Assembly: GCA_902622545.1 (NCBI GenBank)
Contig: CACNQD010000004.1
Location: 116,465-180,464, forward strand
Direction: 5' to 3'
From: an uncultured Pelagibacteraceae bacterium
GTDB lineage: Bacteria > Pseudomonadota > Alphaproteobacteria > Pelagibacterales > Pelagibacteraceae
Length of the DNA stretch: 64,000 nt
The notes under the pieces were generated by a model, which was not told the DNA's origin, ran no database searches, and worked only from the letters and a program-made list of their open reading frames with translations. Both the position numbers and the translations under genes were made by a program. Positions 22,548 through 57,505 of the stretch are shown here, in pieces (position 1 is the first letter of the stretch; every line of letters starts with the position of its first letter).

Positions 22548-23240
22548 TTATTCTAGCGCTATTGATACCGAGGGCTCGTTTATCCACATTGCACAAGCAG
22601 TATCCTCTACACCAATTGCAGTTGTTGTGCCAAACTTTATTCTAATAACTGGTGCTCTCAAAGTTTTTTTATAAGAAGCAGTTAATGCATAGATCATTAC
22701 TGCATCATCTCCTGATACTGTCATTGATACCGCTGATGATGGAGAACTGTAATCATAATCAAGGTCAGAACTTCCTACATCACCATCTCTAGCGCCATCG
22801 CCTGCTCCATAACTCCCAGCATTAACTAAGTACATTGCTTCTGAAACAGCTGTTCCACCATTAGTTCCTAATGTTAGCTGTGTTGCGCCTGCATTATCAC
22901 CTCCATCAGTTCTACAAGTTTTAGCTCCAACTGATATGCTTGCAATAACGTTGAATGTTCTATCAAGAGTTACTCTTAAATGTGTATAGGTAATACCAGC
23001 AGGTATTCCAGTTGTTGGTGCATAAGAACTAACATCTGCACCTGCGGAAGCTGATGCGATATCAGCCGCCATAGATTTTGTTCCTAAAACATAAGGTGTT
23101 CCGCTACATGTTGCATTTTCACATAATTCAACTTTTTTCATCGTAACTTCATATTTTGTTGGTTGACCAGTTGCCTCTGCAGCAAAACTGTTTGAAAAAA
23201 ATAATAAAGACAATAAAACCAAAAAAATTATTTTTTTCAT
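22548..23240 (-). CDS. Secreted Gly/Ala/Thr/Ser-rich hypothetical protein with 4 Cys
   Basis: Signal peptide MKKIIFLVLLSLLFFSNSFA; ATG directly abuts the stop of the upstream barrel gene. Confidence 0.8.
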   Translation of the reverse strand: MKKIIFLVLLSLLFFSNSFAAEATGQPTKYEVTMKKVELCENATCSGTPYVLGTKSMAADIASASAGADVSSYAPTTGIPAGITYTHLRVTLDRTFNVIASISVGAKTCRTDGGDNAGATQLTLGTNGGTAVSEAMYLVNAGSYGAGDGARDGDVGSSDLDYDYSSPSSAVSMTVSGDDAVMIYALTASYKKTLRAPVIRIKFGTTTAIGVEDTACAMWINEPSVSIALE

Positions 23241-24128
23241 TTATGAATTTCCATTAGTTATGACTACTCCTGTGCTCTCAACCTCAAGCGTAATTATGTT
23301 ACTTCTTTTTACTTTAGTTAGCATTTTTTCTCTAACATCTGAATTTACAAATGCAGTGCTCGAAAAACCATCAGAGATAATTGGTCTGTCTTTCCCGCCA
23401 AGTTTATAAGTAAGTTTTATAAAGTCCATGCTGTCACTAATATCGTTATCATCATAACCGGCTTTTAATGTTAAATCGTTTGAGAGATTTATTGTTGTTG
23501 AATAAATTTCACCATTTGAGTCTTTCGAACCCTTTATTGCTTCCCAACCATAAGAGTTATATGAAATATTCGCCCATGGCGCATATGGAACCTGTCCCTC
23601 AAATTCTATATTATATCCGTCCAAAACTCTCTCAGTATCTGATCCAACCTCTTGTGATCCACCCATTGCGTCTAAATAATAATTTCCAGTAAAATTAAAA
23701 TTTGCTGCTTTTAATTCTGATCCTAAACTTACTCTACTATTCATCTCTTTATCTAAATCTAAAAAACTATTTAATCCCCAAAAATAACTTTCATCCTCTG
23801 ATAAAAATCTTTTTCCTATACCATAGTTTAAGGATTGACGTGCTTCACCCAAAACATGATAACTATTAAATTGTGCTTGGTAAAAGACTAAATCCTTCTC
23901 ATTAATAGAATATGGTCTTACGATCATTATAGTACCTGTTGGCTTATTTTCATTTTTGGTTGATAATGACACCTCGGTTTCTCCAGGCCCTTCAAGAAAG
24001 TTTTTTATATATGTTTCTGCTTTTTCTGAGCCTTTACCATAAACTTTATTTATTACATTATTTAAAGTATCTGCGTGTATCTCAGTAGCAAAAAACAAGG
24101 TTATAAAAATTGTTAGAATTTTTTTCAC
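23241..24128 (-). CDS. Inverse autotransporter (intimin/invasin-type) beta-domain protein without passenger
   Basis: GTG start, signal peptide; NYGIGKRF, WGLNSFLD, NYYL, ERVLDGYNIE, and C-terminal REKMLTKVKRSNIITLE resembling the intimin linker. Confidence 0.75.
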   Translation of the reverse strand: MKKILTIFITLFFATEIHADTLNNVINKVYGKGSEKAETYIKNFLEGPGETEVSLSTKNENKPTGTIMIVRPYSINEKDLVFYQAQFNSYHVLGEARQSLNYGIGKRFLSEDESYFWGLNSFLDLDKEMNSRVSLGSELKAANFNFTGNYYLDAMGGSQEVGSDTERVLDGYNIEFEGQVPYAPWANISYNSYGWEAIKGSKDSNGEIYSTTINLSNDLTLKAGYDDNDISDSMDFIKLTYKLGGKDRPIISDGFSSTAFVNSDVREKMLTKVKRSNIITLEVESTGVVITNGNS

Positions 24129-27608: not shown

Positions 27609-28733
27609 TTATGCAATGATCTGTTTTTGATAAATCTTAGTACTCATCACTACGCTAAAACCAATCATAGTAGCTAACATTGAGGATCCGCCATATGACA
27701 TTATTGGCAAAGGGGATCCTACAATTGGGAGAAGTCCAAGCACCATGCTCATATTAACAGTCACAAAAATAAATATAGATGATGCATATCCATAACAAAA
27801 TAATTTTCCAAAAAAACTTCTAGCTGATGCACCAATTTTTGCAGTTCTATAAATTATAATCGCGTATAATAAAAGTAGAAGGACAGACCCTATAAACCCG
27901 TGTTCTTCTGAAAATAAAGTAAAAATAAAATCTGTATGTTTTTCCGGAAGAAAATCTAAGTAGCTTTGTGTTCCTTTTAGAAAACCTTTTCCAGATAAAC
28001 CACCTGAACCTACGGCTATTTTTGACTGAATTATTTGATAACCAGCACCAAGTGGATCTCTGTCTGGATTGAAAAAAGTTAATATTCTTAATTTCTGATA
28101 AGGTTTTAAAAACGATATTACAAAAGGTAAAGATATAAATAAAATAAGTGAAGAATATATAAAATATTTTGCGTTAACACCTGATAGCCATAAGACTGTC
28201 AAACCGCTTAGACCGATAAGAATAGAAGTACCTAAATCTGGTTGGCTAACAACTAATAAAATCGGTAAAATTAAAACCACTATTGGAATTATCAAATTTT
28301 TAAAACTATTGACTACATGTATCTGTGTTCGATGGTAAAATTTCGCAAAACACATTATTATTGCAACCTTCATTAATTCTGATGGTTGTAGATTTATAAA
28401 GTATAGATCTACCCATCTTTGTGAGCCAGAGGCTTTTATACCATAAAGAGAGGCCCAAATTAATAAACACAAAACGGTGAAGTAGAATAAATAACCCGTA
28501 GAGTGCCAAAATTTTAAATTTACAAAAGAAAATATTAACATCATCAAAAAAAAGATCAAAAATCTTATTACATGACTTTTTGTGTGATATAAAATTTCTC
28601 CGCCCTCTGTTGAATACATCGATAGGGAACTTACCAATCCAAGAATTAAAATACAGAATAGCAGAATATAATCAAGTGATCTTAATTTTTGAAAAAAAGT
28701 AATCTGTCCACTAAGTGCTGTATCTTGAAACAT
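27609..28733 (-). CDS. rodA: Rod shape-determining protein RodA
   Basis: LQPSE, QPDLGT, GYQIIQSKIAVGSGG, LPEKHTDFIF, SYGGSS. Confidence 0.96.
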   Translation of the reverse strand: MFQDTALSGQITFFQKLRSLDYILLFCILILGLVSSLSMYSTEGGEILYHTKSHVIRFLIFFLMMLIFSFVNLKFWHSTGYLFYFTVLCLLIWASLYGIKASGSQRWVDLYFINLQPSELMKVAIIMCFAKFYHRTQIHVVNSFKNLIIPIVVLILPILLVVSQPDLGTSILIGLSGLTVLWLSGVNAKYFIYSSLILFISLPFVISFLKPYQKLRILTFFNPDRDPLGAGYQIIQSKIAVGSGGLSGKGFLKGTQSYLDFLPEKHTDFIFTLFSEEHGFIGSVLLLLLYAIIIYRTAKIGASARSFFGKLFCYGYASSIFIFVTVNMSMVLGLLPIVGSPLPIMSYGGSSMLATMIGFSVVMSTKIYQKQIIA

Positions 28734-30712
28734 TATGTCTGTAAATTATTTTTGTTTAAATTTATTTTTTCTCTTTCTTCGTGTCTATCTATTATTAGTT
28801 TAAATAATTTTTTAGCCACTGGTGCTGCAGTTGATCCACCTGAGCCACCATGTTCTATAACAATGCTCAACGCATATCTTGGATTTTTGTAAGGACCAAA
28901 TGCAATATAGAGTGCATGGTCTCTATCCTCATATGGTATTTGTGATATATCTAAATCAAGCTCTCTTTCAGCCTCTGTTATTCTTTTAACTTGCGATGTG
29001 CCAGTTTTTCCTGCAAATTGATATTTTTTATCACTAATTCTTGAAGAATATGAGGTTCCTCTAATTTCATTTGTAGATGCAAACATAGCATCCAAAACAA
29101 ATTTAACATTCTCTTGATTTCTGAAAAGAGGTTTAAATAAAGTGTCTTTATTGCTTGGAGCAAATTTTAAATCTAATAAAGCATCATCAAAATCTGGGCC
29201 TTGTATTATTTTTTCTAAATTTTCACTCATTTTTGATTTTATCTTTTCTAAGTTTGGATCATCTTTATTAACAACTATTTTTGGATTTATTTTAAAACCA
29301 CCGTTTGCTAATTGAGCAGTCATTAAACATAACTGTAAAGGTGTTGTCTGAATGTATCCTTGTCCTATTCCTGTAATTAACGTTTCACCTAGAACCCAAC
29401 TTCTACCCAAACTATTTTTTTTCCATTCTGTGGATGGAACTAATCCAACTTTTTCCTCATTGAAAACATCTTTGAAAACCTTGTCTCCTAATCCAAATTT
29501 TTTTGCAGTTTCATTAAGACGATCTACACCAAGTCGTCTAGACATTTCATAAAAAAAAGTATCACATGAAACTTTTAAAGCTTCTCGTAAATTTACAACT
29601 CCATGACCCTTTTTTTTCCAACAATTATATGTTTGTCCATACATTTCAATTTTTCCAGTGCAATTGACTTTAAATTTTGTTGATATGATATTATTCTCAA
29701 GAGCAGAGAGTGCTACGATTGGTTTTATTGTTGAGCCAGGAGGATATAATCCAGTAATTGATCTATTAATCAATGGTTTTTTTGGATTACTCCTAATATT
29801 TTCCCAATTCTCGTAACTTATACCATACAAGAATAAATTTGGATCAAAAGATGGGGATGAGTGCATTGCAATAATCTCACCAGTAAAAATATCCATTACA
29901 CATATAGAGCCTGCTTTATCTTTTAAAAGATCGTTGCACTTTTGTTGGATTTTAGTATCTACTGTCAATTTTATAGACCGACCTTTTTGACCTTCAATGT
30001 GATCAATTTGGTTTATTCTTTTTCCATATGCATTTACCTCGTATCTTTGAACTCCATTCATGCCAATTAACTCATTTTCTAAAGACCTCTCTAAACCAAT
30101 TTTTCCTACCCTTAATCCAGGTACATGTTTTTTCTTAATTTCTTCATTATTAAGAATGTCGCTATTACTTGCTTGGGCAACATAACCTAAAAGATGTGTA
30201 TAGTTTTCATTATATGGGTAGCTTCTTGCTACAGACAAAACTGGTTTGACGCCTGATAATTCATGTAAATAAAAATTTATTTTTACAAATTGATCCCAGG
30301 ATAAATTTTCTGATACGATTAAAGTCTCCCAAGGTTTTTGGGAATTTTTTTTTTTGATAATTTTATTCAAGGTTTTCTGGTCTAAATCTAGAATATCTTT
30401 TACTCTTACTATTAAATTATTAAAATTTTCAACTTGCTCTGGAATTACATGAAGTTGATAAACTTGCAAATTGCCAGCGATAGTATTTCCATAAAAATCC
30501 TTAAAATCACCTCTTATAGGAGGAAGTTTCCACTCTCTTAATCGGTTTTTATCAGAAAGTGTAAGGTATTTTTTATTTTGGTTTATTTGTAGAGAGAACA
30601 ATTTTGCAACTATACCTCCAAACACTAATATTTTGGCAGTAGAAAGAATAAACATTCTTCTATTAACTACACTTTGTTTTCTATAGCTAGTATCTGAACC
30701 AAAACTAATCAT
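28733..30712 (-). CDS. mrdA: Penicillin-binding protein 2
   Basis: PPGSTIK (SxxK), SCD (SxN position), AGKTGT. Confidence 0.95.
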   Translation of the reverse strand: MISFGSDTSYRKQSVVNRRMFILSTAKILVFGGIVAKLFSLQINQNKKYLTLSDKNRLREWKLPPIRGDFKDFYGNTIAGNLQVYQLHVIPEQVENFNNLIVRVKDILDLDQKTLNKIIKKKNSQKPWETLIVSENLSWDQFVKINFYLHELSGVKPVLSVARSYPYNENYTHLLGYVAQASNSDILNNEEIKKKHVPGLRVGKIGLERSLENELIGMNGVQRYEVNAYGKRINQIDHIEGQKGRSIKLTVDTKIQQKCNDLLKDKAGSICVMDIFTGEIIAMHSSPSFDPNLFLYGISYENWENIRSNPKKPLINRSITGLYPPGSTIKPIVALSALENNIISTKFKVNCTGKIEMYGQTYNCWKKKGHGVVNLREALKVSCDTFFYEMSRRLGVDRLNETAKKFGLGDKVFKDVFNEEKVGLVPSTEWKKNSLGRSWVLGETLITGIGQGYIQTTPLQLCLMTAQLANGGFKINPKIVVNKDDPNLEKIKSKMSENLEKIIQGPDFDDALLDLKFAPSNKDTLFKPLFRNQENVKFVLDAMFASTNEIRGTSYSSRISDKKYQFAGKTGTSQVKRITEAERELDLDISQIPYEDRDHALYIAFGPYKNPRYALSIVIEHGGSGGSTAAPVAKKLFKLIIDRHEEREKINLNKNNLQT

Positions 30713-31217
30713 TTGTTCTTCTGAGTAAATTTAAATAGTAACCAAAAATATATGAAAAAAAATAATAGAACAAGAATGTATATAAAACATTAAATAACAG
30801 GTCGAAATAATTAATCGTAGCATTAAAAAATATCACCATTATTGAGTAAAAAAGTGAGCTTGTAACCAAAATAGTAAACATGAAGAAAAACCAATCTTTA
30901 ATTAGACTTGGTCTTAATGTAATATTTCTAAGATATACTGCAAATACACAAATTATCAGATATGTCATACTGCTTATTCCTAAGGGTAAACCAATAACAA
31001 CATCATTAATAAGCCCTGCAATAAAGACTAATACGTAGCTTAATCTACCTTCTCCCTTTAAACTCCAATAAAAAATTAATATGTATGGAAAATTGAATGA
31101 AAAATATTCAAAATTTAAATAATTTAAATCAAATTCGTTTAAAACTGAAATATAAAGTAATATTATTGGACCTAGTGATAAAATTTTTCTAGAAATTGGT
31201 AACTTTGATAAAGACAT
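30705..31217 (-). CDS. mreD: Rod shape-determining protein MreD
   Basis: Hydrophobic; GLINDVVIGLPLG; position between mreC and mrdA. Confidence 0.85.
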   Translation of the reverse strand: MSLSKLPISRKILSLGPIILLYISVLNEFDLNYLNFEYFSFNFPYILIFYWSLKGEGRLSYVLVFIAGLINDVVIGLPLGISSMTYLIICVFAVYLRNITLRPSLIKDWFFFMFTILVTSSLFYSIMVIFFNATINYFDLLFNVLYTFLFYYFFSYIFGYYLNLLRRTND

Positions 31218-31220
31218 GGA

Positions 31221-32069
31221 TCAATTCACATTTTCATATAAAACTATTTTTACCAATCTTAGCTGTGTAAAATCAGAGTGAAACTTCACATAACTTTCAT
31301 TACTTTCATCTATTAAGTTTATTTTACCAATTGGTATTCCTGATTTGAATATGCCACCTGAACCAGAGGAATAAATCTGATCACCTTCATTTAGGATAAT
31401 ATTGTCTAATTGTGTGTATTGTAATCTTCCAAATTTTTCACCGGTACCTGTTAAAATTGATTGTACGCTATTAGGCTCAATTGATACTGGTACTTTACTA
31501 TTTAAATCTGATAAAAGTAACACTCTTGCTGTTCTAAAATTTACCTCTACAACTTTGCCAATTAAAAACTCGCCATCTAAGACAGCCATCCCTAATTTCA
31601 CTCCATCTTTACTGCCTCTATTAACAATCACTGATTTAAGAAAAGGACTTTGTTTATCTAATAATACTTTTGCTAAAATTTCTGAGGATGAGTCTAAAAT
31701 ATCGTCTATTTTTGACTTTAACATTTTGTTTTCAGAGATGATAAAATTATTATTAAAGTTTTCAGCCTGTAAAACTTTAAAGTCTCTTTTTAATTTTTTA
31801 TGATCTTCATATAAATTAATATGTGATATGGTTAATTTATAAGTGTTTTTAATAAAATTCTCTGGTGCAGAGATTATGAATGAGGAACGGTAAACAATTT
31901 CGTTTAATGCGGTTTTTAAAAAAACTATTCCTTTAAAGTTATATTTACCTAATACTAAAATTGTTATTGAAAAAAAAAGTAAAACTATGAGTGAGAATCT
32001 TTGCTTTGTTCCTTTTTTTAAAAAGGCAGATCTGATTGCAATAATGAAATCATCTCTGTTTGTTTCCAT
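31221..32069 (-). CDS. mreC: Rod shape-determining protein MreC
   Basis: VIVNRGSKDGV, SGSGGIFKSGIPIG. Confidence 0.93.
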   Translation of the reverse strand: METNRDDFIIAIRSAFLKKGTKQRFSLIVLLFFSITILVLGKYNFKGIVFLKTALNEIVYRSSFIISAPENFIKNTYKLTISHINLYEDHKKLKRDFKVLQAENFNNNFIISENKMLKSKIDDILDSSSEILAKVLLDKQSPFLKSVIVNRGSKDGVKLGMAVLDGEFLIGKVVEVNFRTARVLLLSDLNSKVPVSIEPNSVQSILTGTGEKFGRLQYTQLDNIILNEGDQIYSSGSGGIFKSGIPIGKINLIDESNESYVKFHSDFTQLRLVKIVLYENVN

Positions 32070-32075
32070 TTTGTC

Positions 32076-34686
<2,611 letters not shown>

Positions 34687-55140: not shown

Positions 55141-56061
55141 TTAAGCAGAAGTTTTTAATGGATTCTTTATTAAGAAAGAATGTGGTATATTTTTTTCTTT
55201 GAGTTCAATTATTGAAAAATTATCATTATTGCTTAATAAATCTCTTAATCCTTGGTTAGTCATATTATGACCACCTTGACTTGATGTAATTTTTCCTACC
55301 ATTCTATAGCCGGCGAGGTATATGTCCCCTAGGCAATCTAAAATTTTATGATTCACAAACTCCTTAGTATTTCTTAATTTTTCTGGATTAAGTATTTCGT
55401 TACCTTTTAATACTATAGCGTTCTCGAGACTTCCCCCTTTGGCTAACCCTATCTTTTTTAATTTTTCAACATCCTCAAACAAACAAAAAGTTCTTGAATT
55501 ATACATATCTGTTAAATCATTCATATAGATATTTATTGAATTTCTTTGGTTTAAAATTAAATTTTGTTTATATTTAATCTCAAAGTCAATTTCTAAACTA
55601 ATTTTGTTTGGTTCAAATTTGATAAATTTTTCACCATCCGAGTAAGTAACTTTTTTATTAATTTTAATTATTCTTATGGGTTGATCACTAATTTTAAATC
55701 CAATATTTTGCAAGACATCTATAAAATTTTTTGCAGAACCATCCATAATTGGTAATTCCTCAGAATTCAATTCGACAAAAAGATTATCTATGCCTAATCC
55801 ACATAAAGCAGCCATTAAATGTTCAACTGTTGAAACGCTTACACCATATTCATTTGTTAATTTTGTACAATAAGAAGCGCTTGATACATTAAATACACTC
55901 GGATAAATTAAATTGTTATTATTTAAATCTGATCTTTTAAATATAATTCCTGTGTTTGGTGGAGCAGGAAACAAAGTCATTAAAACTTTTTTACCTGAAT
56001 GTAGTCCTATACCTTCAAATTTTGCGCTATTTTTTATAGTTTTTTGATTTAATACTGACAT
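55141..56061 (-). CDS. lpxC: UDP-3-O-acyl-N-acetylglucosamine deacetylase
   Basis: GIGLHSG, TVEHLMAAL, HKILDCLGD. Confidence 0.97.
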   Translation of the reverse strand: MSVLNQKTIKNSAKFEGIGLHSGKKVLMTLFPAPPNTGIIFKRSDLNNNNLIYPSVFNVSSASYCTKLTNEYGVSVSTVEHLMAALCGLGIDNLFVELNSEELPIMDGSAKNFIDVLQNIGFKISDQPIRIIKINKKVTYSDGEKFIKFEPNKISLEIDFEIKYKQNLILNQRNSINIYMNDLTDMYNSRTFCLFEDVEKLKKIGLAKGGSLENAIVLKGNEILNPEKLRNTKEFVNHKILDCLGDIYLAGYRMVGKITSSQGGHNMTNQGLRDLLSNNDNFSIIELKEKNIPHSFLIKNPLKTSA

Positions 56062-56127
56062 TTAAACCTTATAGGAGTTAAGGATAATTAAGGAAAAACA
56101 AGTAATATTACAAAAGAATACAAAAAT

Positions 56128-56838
56128 TTATCCAAATAAATCAAATATTTTGTAAAAAATACCTCTTTTTTTTGAAATACTATCATTTAAGTAAACTTCT
56201 GATTGATTAATTCCATTTAAGACTTTTACCGCAGACACACACATTGTGTCATCAGTGGTATCATTTGAGAATTTTTTAGCATATTCATATGATACAATCT
56301 TATTAACATTGACTTTACAATCGCTAAACAGGTTATTTACTTTGGTAATTATGTTTTTATCTAAGCATATAAATTCAATTTCAAGAATAATTTTTTTAAA
56401 ATTAATATTCTTTGGAAAAAATTCGTATATCCTATCGTCGACTACAAATTTATTAATCATTATATGAATAATAGATAAATTTTTTTCACTTAAGTGAAAT
56501 TTTTGAATACTGCTAGTTATAAGATCAGTAATAACCTTTTTATCAAGTATTTTTTCGTCAAATATATTTTTTATACTAAATGATATCCTCTGAGTAGAAT
56601 TTGACTTTATAGATATATTCCCACTATTTAAAAAAAAACCTAAATTTTTTTCTATCTTCCTTATATTATTTTTTAGTAAATTTGAAATAATTCTAAAATT
56701 TAAATTATTATTTAGACTGTCTGGAATTTCAAAATCTACTCTTTCTTTGTAATCTATTTTTCCCTTTTCAAAAAAACATATATAAATTTTTTTTTCTGAA
56801 ATACCGAAGTAAAAGTCTCCTGTTTCATTGCTATTCAT
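56128..56838 (-). CDS. Truncated, divergent FtsA-like protein
   Basis: Position after ftsQ; IIHIMINKFVVD resembles FtsA subdomain 1C; C-terminal amphipathic helix KKRGIFYKIFDLFG; only 236 aa. Confidence 0.6.
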   Translation of the reverse strand: MNSNETGDFYFGISEKKIYICFFEKGKIDYKERVDFEIPDSLNNNLNFRIISNLLKNNIRKIEKNLGFFLNSGNISIKSNSTQRISFSIKNIFDEKILDKKVITDLITSSIQKFHLSEKNLSIIHIMINKFVVDDRIYEFFPKNINFKKIILEIEFICLDKNIITKVNNLFSDCKVNVNKIVSYEYAKKFSNDTTDDTMCVSAVKVLNGINQSEVYLNDSISKKRGIFYKIFDLFG

Positions 56839-57505
56839 ATTTTATTATTTTATTTTTGATTCTTAAATCAATAATTTTAGAATTAACAAATTTTTTTTCA
56901 TTTAACAAATTACTACTATAATTTATTGTATCTTTGGTAAACTTAATTGGTAATTTAATAATAGTACCTTTTTGAAGATGAATATCAAACCTTCCACTTT
57001 TAAAAAAATTGATTTTCTTGATTAATTTATAATCTAATTTTGAGTCGTATAACAAATTTATAACACTATAAATTTTATCTATATCCCCGGAACCTGTAAC
57101 TGTTGGTAAATTCTCTTTTTTATTTTCCAAATCTAATTTTTTTCCGTTATCACCCAAAACTATCTTATTATTATTAATTTCAATTATACATATTGGTTTT
57201 GCTGGGGTGAAATCAATAATTATTTTATTTGGATAATTTTTTTTAACAGTTAGATATTTCACGTCATTTCTCTCACTTAATTTTAAAAAATAATCATTAT
57301 TTATAAAAAAAATATTTTTTGTAGTAATTTCTTTGATATCGTTCTTAATCTGCTCATTTTTTTTTTTTGAAAATCCTTTTACTTGAATATCTTTAATATT
57401 AAATACGCTCTCCTTATTAAAATTATAATTATTTACCGATGTTAAAATAATTATAATTAAGGTATAATAAAAAAATTTAGTTTTTTTATCTATTTGTTGA
57501 TGCAT
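56831..57505 (-). CDS. ftsQ: Cell division protein FtsQ/DivIB
   Basis: N-terminal TM, POTRA region (VKKNYPNKI), C-terminal IIDLRI. Confidence 0.88.
   Translation of the reverse strand: MHQQIDKKTKFFYYTLIIIILTSVNNYNFNKESVFNIKDIQVKGFSKKKNEQIKNDIKEITTKNIFFINNDYFLKLSERNDVKYLTVKKNYPNKIIIDFTPAKPICIIEINNNKIVLGDNGKKLDLENKKENLPTVTGSGDIDKIYSVINLLYDSKLDYKLIKKINFFKSGRFDIHLQKGTIIKLPIKFTKDTINYSSNLLNEKKFVNSKIIDLRIKNKIIKYE

Follow-up and report, generated by a model that had tools for sequence, protein, structure and literature searches.

A half-size FtsA of 236 aa is the only FtsA that we found in the genome of an uncultured Pelagibacteraceae bacterium (G000). Around 135 residues comprising the whole of lobe II (subdomains IIA and IIB) have been lost in frame, and subdomains IA and IC, the last IA helix and the C-terminal membrane helix are kept. 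The half-size protein is widespread among relatives, conserved and under purifying selection, and it is undescribed in the literature searched, in which we found no truncated SAR11 FtsA.

The gene lies in a stretch of 64,000 nucleotides that was analysed as a whole (the window) and belongs to a 1.15 Mb genome of ~29% GC, which is assembled in 9 contigs and is 97.7% complete; its size, GC and gene content point to SAR11 (Pelagibacterales). The gene order described in the initial annotation is confirmed, with ftsQ (56831..57505, minus strand, 224 aa) overlapping the start of ftsA by 8 bp at its 3' end and followed by the 236-aa ftsA (56128..56838, minus strand), a 66-bp spacer at the usual site of ftsZ (56062..56127) and lpxC (55141..56061, minus strand). 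We looked for a frameshift or assembly gap that might hide the missing part and found neither, the ftsA frame being unbroken and the genome free of N. The half-size frame occupies the FtsA ortholog slot of the dcw cluster, directly after ftsQ. Among 79 related loci, picked from 201 related genomes to span every class of FtsA length, with a further 3-kb locus omitted, short or long ftsA directly precedes lpxC in every case, and the spacer between the two is about equal in long-form and short-form genomes (mostly 61-67 bp). The elongasome appears as intact as first described, with frames for mreB, mreC, mreD, mrdA and rodA at 27609-33110; mreB is supported by a TIGR01174 match and the other four names are our assignments from sequence features. 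Elsewhere in the window (22548-24128, minus strand) a 230-aa secreted-looking protein adjoins a 295-aa protein which, judging by its features, presumably resembles an inverse-autotransporter beta-barrel.

Standard family profiles pass over this protein. A Pfam search of the 236-aa frame gave no match (PF14450 and PF02491 included), it reaches only 29.6 bits with TIGR01174, whose cut-off is 175.85, and an ESM Atlas search returned unnamed clusters only, one of them with 10% PF02491. Surveys of gene presence and absence would consequently score such genomes as lacking ftsA. Its derivation from FtsA, as initially proposed, is nevertheless borne out by three approaches. A profile of 81 short forms searched against the PDB had the FtsA of E. 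coli, Xenorhabdus and Vibrio as its top three matches (E 0.001 for E. coli), the match covering residues 57-196 of E. coli FtsA. Profile-profile comparison of the short forms with their long relatives gave 99.8%, and a profile of 18 long relatives matched solved FtsA structures over ~275-335 positions (E 5e-28 to 8e-32). Finally, the AF2 model (pLDDT 85, pTM 0.80) found FtsA as its best Foldseek match (E 1.8e-12), and VIA placed 204 of its residues on residues 6-388 of E. coli FtsA (rmsd 2.8, Z 13.9) and gave Z 16.2 against S. aureus FtsA. The half-size protein is thus a variant of FtsA and not a separate family.

The profile of long forms maps onto the 236-aa frame in two blocks, positions 6-186 to residues 8-191 and positions 343-383 to residues 194-236. 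Modelling of a 369-aa relative places the whole of IIA and IIB, strands and helices alike, between a helix at 177-189 and another at 329-341, and in the half FtsA model the corresponding helices (184-190 and 200-207) are linked by a nine-residue loop. Taken together the two-block mapping and the model comparison indicate that lobe II was cut out at its hinges from within the protein, without a shift of frame. A global MAFFT alignment had paired the phosphate-2 strand with the last IA helix; it was overruled by the two-block profile match, a split alignment and the fold match. The initial annotation had recognised a 1C-like segment and the C-terminal membrane helix and had missed that all of IA is kept as well; its suggestion that 2A and 2B are lacking agrees with both the profile mapping and the model. 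The four-subdomain actin fold is accordingly incomplete and the FtsZ-tail site of IIB is absent, the region having been deleted. According to the model, the remainder would form a single IA+IC unit with the membrane helix at its end.

Along the protein (all on the minus strand), residues 1-82 form the first part of IA with three strands, a helix at 45-66 and a strand at 72-77 (56593..56838), and residues ~83-160 form IC, an SHS2-type insert whose limits are taken from the model and the alignment with E. coli FtsA (56359..56592). The presence of this SHS2 subdomain in the position typical of FtsA is supported by the model, the fold match and the profile match to E. coli FtsA, although PF02491 does not score it. 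Residues 161-190 comprise a helix, strand and helix of IA up to the former hinge (56269..56358), and residues 191-199 are the deletion junction, a short loop in place of the ~135 residues of IIA and IIB (56242..56268). The last IA helix and a G-x-N-x-x-E-V motif follow at residues 200-215 (56194..56241), and a Phe-rich C-terminal helix at residues 226-236 is the predicted membrane-targeting sequence (56131..56163). A membrane role for the C-terminal helix is established FtsA biology. In the half FtsA model this helix spans residues 228-235 at low pLDDT, and its hydrophobic moment of 0.55 is exceeded in 22 of the 226 windows of the protein.

The reported absence of ATP-binding motifs also holds. 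The phosphate-1 Asp, replaced by Gly12 in the half FtsA, is found in 0/43 short forms, 20/20 same-genus long forms, 0/5 long forms of sister genera and 9/10 deeper forms, and the phosphate-2 and adenosine motifs fall in the part that the short forms have lost. Other residues are strongly kept in the short forms, with E63 invariant (43/43), K64 strongly kept, N58 (37/43), F69 (38/43) and K90 (40/43) better kept than in long forms, and H125 conserved in IC together with K90. The G-x-N-x-x-E-V motif retains its G in 39/43, N in 38/43 and E in 41/43, and the C-terminal Phe residues are close to invariant (F228 42/43, F232 43/43, F235 42/43). An R-x-x-E motif of IIB, present in all 20 same-genus long forms, presumably contributes to FtsZ binding. 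It aligns with the helix around residue 300 of T. maritima FtsA, in the region described as the FtsZ site of E. coli FtsA (PMC10769210). Using hand-picked pairs and a simple counting method, we obtained dN/dS values of 0.14-0.31 for short ftsA in 8/9 pairs, the ninth and most diverged one giving 0.75; the short-form values are like those of long ftsA (0.17-0.31, 4 pairs) and like those of ftsQ. The half-size gene is under purifying selection.

A second ftsA, which the initial annotation had suggested, was not found. TIGR01174 returned only MreB, the 236-aa frame and one weak 646-aa match from the source genome, and a lobe-II profile run on all six frames of the same genome gave nothing beyond MreB (E 0.068), two held-out long forms used as a control scoring E ~1e-40. 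No long ftsA that could form a full-length ftsA-ftsZ pair elsewhere was therefore detected in this genome, and in nearly all other short-form genomes the full-length FtsA profile has a single match. It follows that the half FtsA is the only FtsA of the cell and not a spare paralog, which is the more surprising of the two situations, and its description as a non-ATPase FtsA derivative stands, with the ATP motifs gone and IIA and IIB absent. Four metatranscriptome assemblies (of 13 listed runs) contained scattered pieces of the locus, including one 261-nt contig running from ftsQ into the first 42 nt of ftsA; none of the pieces listed spans the body of the ftsA gene.

Within the genus, 116 genomes were examined: 78 gave a short-type FtsA match spanning the junction, 36 a long FtsA (368-391 aa where read out) and 2 no match. 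One unpublished genome (G111) is counted as a short form in these tallies and used nowhere else. An unbroken frame of 220-245 aa is seen in 70 of the 78 short-type genomes and a broken or cut frame in 8, and many of the genomes with a short form are single contigs. Beyond the genus, 24/24 genomes from other genera of the family and 50/60 genomes of a second family had a long-form match (three of them cut by contig ends), the 10 genomes of that second family without a match being mostly incomplete. Class-wide, the IC family matched 280/301 genomes (a tally that includes the unpublished G232 and G406) and missed the source genome; its matches were 304-753 aa long among the 150 frames listed. Homologs of the half FtsA were nearly all 231-243 aa among the 120 matches listed, and when representatives at 50% identity are considered, half of the best 150 (75) fall within 218-245 aa, 10 are longer than 300 aa and most of the others are fragments. 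Length is steady, 231-238 aa in 38/43 short forms, and sequence is very divergent (22-37% identity between lineages). Four of the 43 (L067-L070, from G075, G083, G158 and G191) have a further loss of 11-14 residues in an IC hairpin and measure 220-223 aa. Five loci of sister genera (L048 and L098-L101, from G177, G155, G162, G187 and G167) carry full-length FtsA of 376-399 aa with neither the phosphate-1 Asp nor the phosphate-2 D-x-G (0/5), and judging from these motifs they may represent a parallel pseudo-ATPase stage.

How often lobe II was lost is less simple. Short forms fall in three groups in trees of the neighbouring dcw proteins, which need 2-3 changes, at least two of them forced by well-supported branches. 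A single short clade is rejected by the neighbouring genes (AU p=0.012, 25 of 78 taxa, 1700 columns), the tested group being set by FtsA length but after the first tree had been viewed. The shared columns of FtsA itself allow a single origin, in 16% and 26% of bootstrap trees. Junction length is equal within ~2 residues across all three short groups, and synonymous distances within a pair differ markedly between genes. The conflicting trees, similar junctions and uneven synonymous distances point to either repeated deletion at one hinge or a single deletion spread by recombination.

The window contains no ftsZ, and the initial annotation had concluded that the dcw cluster lacks it. This does not hold: an intact ftsZ of 490 aa lies ~7 kb beyond the end of the window at G000:C4:187496-188968(-), between mraZ and mraW, so that its apparent absence is a window-edge effect and its outright loss is rejected. 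It is the sole tubulin-family match in the genome and carries an intact C-terminal peptide. The further suggestion of relocation was right in that ftsZ has moved rather than been lost, and wrong in that it is still inside the cluster, which reads mraZ-ftsZ-mraW-ftsL-ftsI-murE/F-mraY-murD-ftsW-murG-murC-murB-ddl-ftsQ-ftsA-lpxC with ftsZ second. In 73 of the 79 related loci ftsZ is immediately ahead of mraW, and in none does it come after ftsA; the remaining 6 end at a contig edge near or before the ftsZ-mraW point. Since the order mraZ-ftsZ-mraW is also found in genomes with a 369-410-aa FtsA, the move is older than the shortening of FtsA and separate from it. The FtsZ tail, [DE][LF]EIPAFLRRQ, is kept in 43/43 short-form and 18/18 same-genus long-form loci. 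Nothing on this position of ftsZ was found in the literature searched; a 2022 survey of dcw clusters that we recall, and that did not surface there, may cover gene order.

Upstream of mraZ there are three CCCA boxes at 10-bp spacing (L005:11460-11500, minus strand; G000:C4 ~189460-189500), with RNase P RNA just upstream of them. Two boxes are found in 68/68 loci and three in 63/68. Their spacing is that described for MraZ boxes with six-base spacers, and the letters differ (PMC12957436). The boxes are likely an MraZ operator directly above ftsZ, which would place ftsZ under MraZ control. Within the same cluster murE and murF share a single 940-aa frame (G000:C4:181727-184549, minus strand), a fusion common to the genus and its sister genera, the two being separate genes in deeper lineages. 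The membrane segment of FtsL (G000:C4:186204-186476, minus strand) stands almost at the start of the protein and that of FtsQ is preceded by only ~10 residues, compared with ~30 cytoplasmic residues kept by FtsI. Such minimal tails of FtsL and FtsQ leave fewer possible partners for the half FtsA.

Of the remaining division proteins, FtsB, ZapA and FtsK were present in 5/5 genomes tested, and ZipA and SepF in 0/5. FtsX was likewise found in 0/5, a weak blank as the FtsX family search also missed the Caulobacter control. The only GST-family match in the source genome, considered as a possible FzlA, we take from its features to be a plain YfcG-type GST. A SPOR/FtsN domain had no match in the source genome and was seen in 1/5 genomes tested, there in an RlpA-like lipoprotein. 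A SPOR gene lies directly before nagZ in 5/5 other alphaproteobacterial genomes, with argS upstream in 3. The argS-nagZ slot of the source genome holds an 86-aa single-pass membrane protein with almost no cytoplasmic tail (G000:C3:216928-217188, minus strand), which is found in 86/88 same-genus genomes, long-form and short-form alike, at 48-76% identity to the query from G154 in most. Its profile showed no similarity to five SPOR proteins of the same slot (best E 0.087) and the ESM Atlas gave it no named match. Lacking likeness to SPOR proteins it is a candidate by position only, for a reduced FtsN or a new division protein. Published work on the SAR11 cell cycle describes zipA, ftsE, mipZ, sepF and minCD as mostly missing in SAR11, and the main text of that preprint mentions FtsA twice, both times in reference titles (10.1101/2025.06.25.661606).

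What might a cell do with half an FtsA? FtsZ is described as binding subdomain IIB of FtsA near E. coli residues 234-245 and 294-304 (PMC10769210). FtsA filaments make lateral contacts through IC and lengthwise contacts through IIA/IIB, and FtsN binds the IA-IC cleft (PMC7613929); an activating link from FtsA to FtsW has been proposed (PMC11323482), and active-site mutants of FtsA in model bacteria do not form rings (PMC10213515). Neither the ATP site nor the established site for the FtsZ tail is physically present, and known FtsA structure implies that the half protein neither binds ATP in an actin cleft nor holds the FtsZ tail in the canonical way, and the loss of IIA and IIB likewise implies no lengthwise filament contacts. 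As the half that binds ATP and holds FtsZ has gone, the division ring would have to be tethered by another means.

The explanation towards which we lean, at slightly better than an even chance, is that the half FtsA is a nucleotide-free membrane adaptor for the late divisome and that FtsZ is held by something else. On this scheme lobe II would have been removed in frame at its two hinges to leave lobe I, which would sit on the inner membrane independently of nucleotide, perhaps as an IC-IC dimer. Its IA/IC surface would recruit or switch on late division proteins (FtsW-FtsI, FtsQLB, FtsK), the second job of FtsA, and the invariant FtsZ tail would be held by another partner, ftsZ having moved earlier and separately to the second place of the operon behind MraZ-type boxes. 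It is precisely the IA/IC side and the membrane helix that the half FtsA has retained. Several observations speak against this adaptor role: FtsN, the ligand of the IA-IC cleft, may be missing, the equal conservation of the FtsZ tail fits a new site on the half FtsA equally well, none of the known replacement anchors searched for was found (ZipA, SepF and FtsX, 0/5 genomes), and the short forms show high divergence, one pair with dN/dS 0.75 and 8/78 broken or cut frames.

That second possibility, in which the half FtsA still anchors FtsZ through a new tail site in the IA-IC cleft or on a newly exposed face, as a passive ZipA-like tether with neither ATP nor filaments, we regard as rather unlikely yet the most serious of the alternatives. 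It would account for a tail unchanged in 43/43 short-form loci, for a membrane helix that is the best-kept part of the protein and for the better conservation of N58, F69 and K90 in short than in long forms. The absence of ZipA, SepF and FtsX from the 5 genomes tested, in keeping with the general scarcity of zipA, ftsE, sepF and mipZ reported for SAR11 (10.1101/2025.06.25.661606), and the description of short peptides bound in the IA-IC cleft of FtsA and PilM, also favour it. Against it, the deleted IIB is the sole FtsZ site found in the literature searched (PMC10769210), the FtsZ tail shows no compensating change, and the same source names other binders of the tail (FtsZ itself, MinC/ZipA) that could explain its conservation. 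So could ClpX, a further binder of the FtsZ tail.

We consider it improbable that the half FtsA is a decaying remnant, dispensable, halved in the course of genome streamlining and weakly kept, for example through operon coupling. Fast divergence, the additional IC loss in 4/43 short forms and the motif-dead full-length FtsA of sister genera (phosphate-1 Asp 0/5) might be read as decay, but dN/dS of ~0.2, the steady length, invariant residues at both ends, a confident AF2 fold and an FtsA match in 114/116 same-genus genomes are hard to reconcile with it, and the broken frames of G101 and G119 accompany breaks in other essential dcw genes, as would be expected from sequencing errors. A split gene or assembly artefact, with lobe II elsewhere or dropped by the assembler, is scarcely credible, since despite the 9 contigs and 97.7% completeness of the source genome the lobe-II profile finds nothing there, the loss is an internal one that preserves the reading frame and both ends of the protein, and the same form recurs at nearly constant length, many times in single-contig genomes.

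It is possible, at a little under an even chance, that most species of the main SAR11 genus build a normal FtsZ ring without a known anchor, the ATPase and FtsZ-binding lobe having been lost, probably repeatedly at the same hinge, and the FtsZ tail being gripped by a new site on the half FtsA or by an undescribed small membrane protein, for which the 86-aa argS-nagZ protein is one candidate. If so, they would divide with a minimal divisome free of ATP-driven FtsA filaments. In model bacteria it is difficult to disentangle the two jobs of FtsA, tethering FtsZ and activating septal wall synthesis. Here one genus holds long and short FtsA with the same FtsZ tail, a protein split along the line between its two jobs, and these naturally paired alleles offer a way to study lobe I by itself and to look for other anchors of FtsZ, in a clade that has been called the most abundant among marine bacteria.

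Compared with canonical FtsA (E. coli 7Q6D, V. maritimus 7Q6F/7Q6I, T. maritima 4A2A/1E4F, S. aureus 3WQT; TIGR01174, PF14450+PF02491) the half FtsA shares the slot after ftsQ, the IA+IC fold, the last IA helix and the C-terminal membrane helix, and canonical FtsA provides its best matches in both sequence and fold. It differs in the loss of IIA, IIB, the phosphate-1 Asp, the phosphate-2 and adenosine motifs and the IIB FtsZ site, in its length (236 aa against ~400-420 aa), in falling under all Pfam and TIGR cut-offs and in having no ftsZ downstream. Long FtsA proteins of the order (368-410 aa) have the same slot, lobe I and C-terminal motifs and keep lobe II; those of the same genus keep the D-x-G (20/20) and the IIB R-x-x-E (20/20), whereas the five sister-genus long forms are without phosphate motifs. 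The cytoplasmic domain of GspL/EpsL (4PHT, 1YF5, 1W97) and PilM (2YCH, 5EOU) also have an FtsA-like fold with an IC-type insert and act as membrane-side adaptors, and the GspL domains are of similar size (224-238 aa). GspL is not known to bind ATP, retains a part resembling IIA and has a transmembrane segment as its anchor. Both are weaker fold matches to the half FtsA (TM 0.34-0.38; GspL by Foldseek E 1e-5 to 4e-4) and work in secretion or pilus systems. VIA ranks FtsA first (Z 13.7-16.2), ahead of PilM (11.3) and GspL (9.3), and the gene belongs to the dcw cluster rather than to an operon for type II secretion or type IV pili, so that membership of the GspL/PilM group is rejected on both operon context and fold. 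By analogy, GspL and PilM may instead serve as models of how the half FtsA works.
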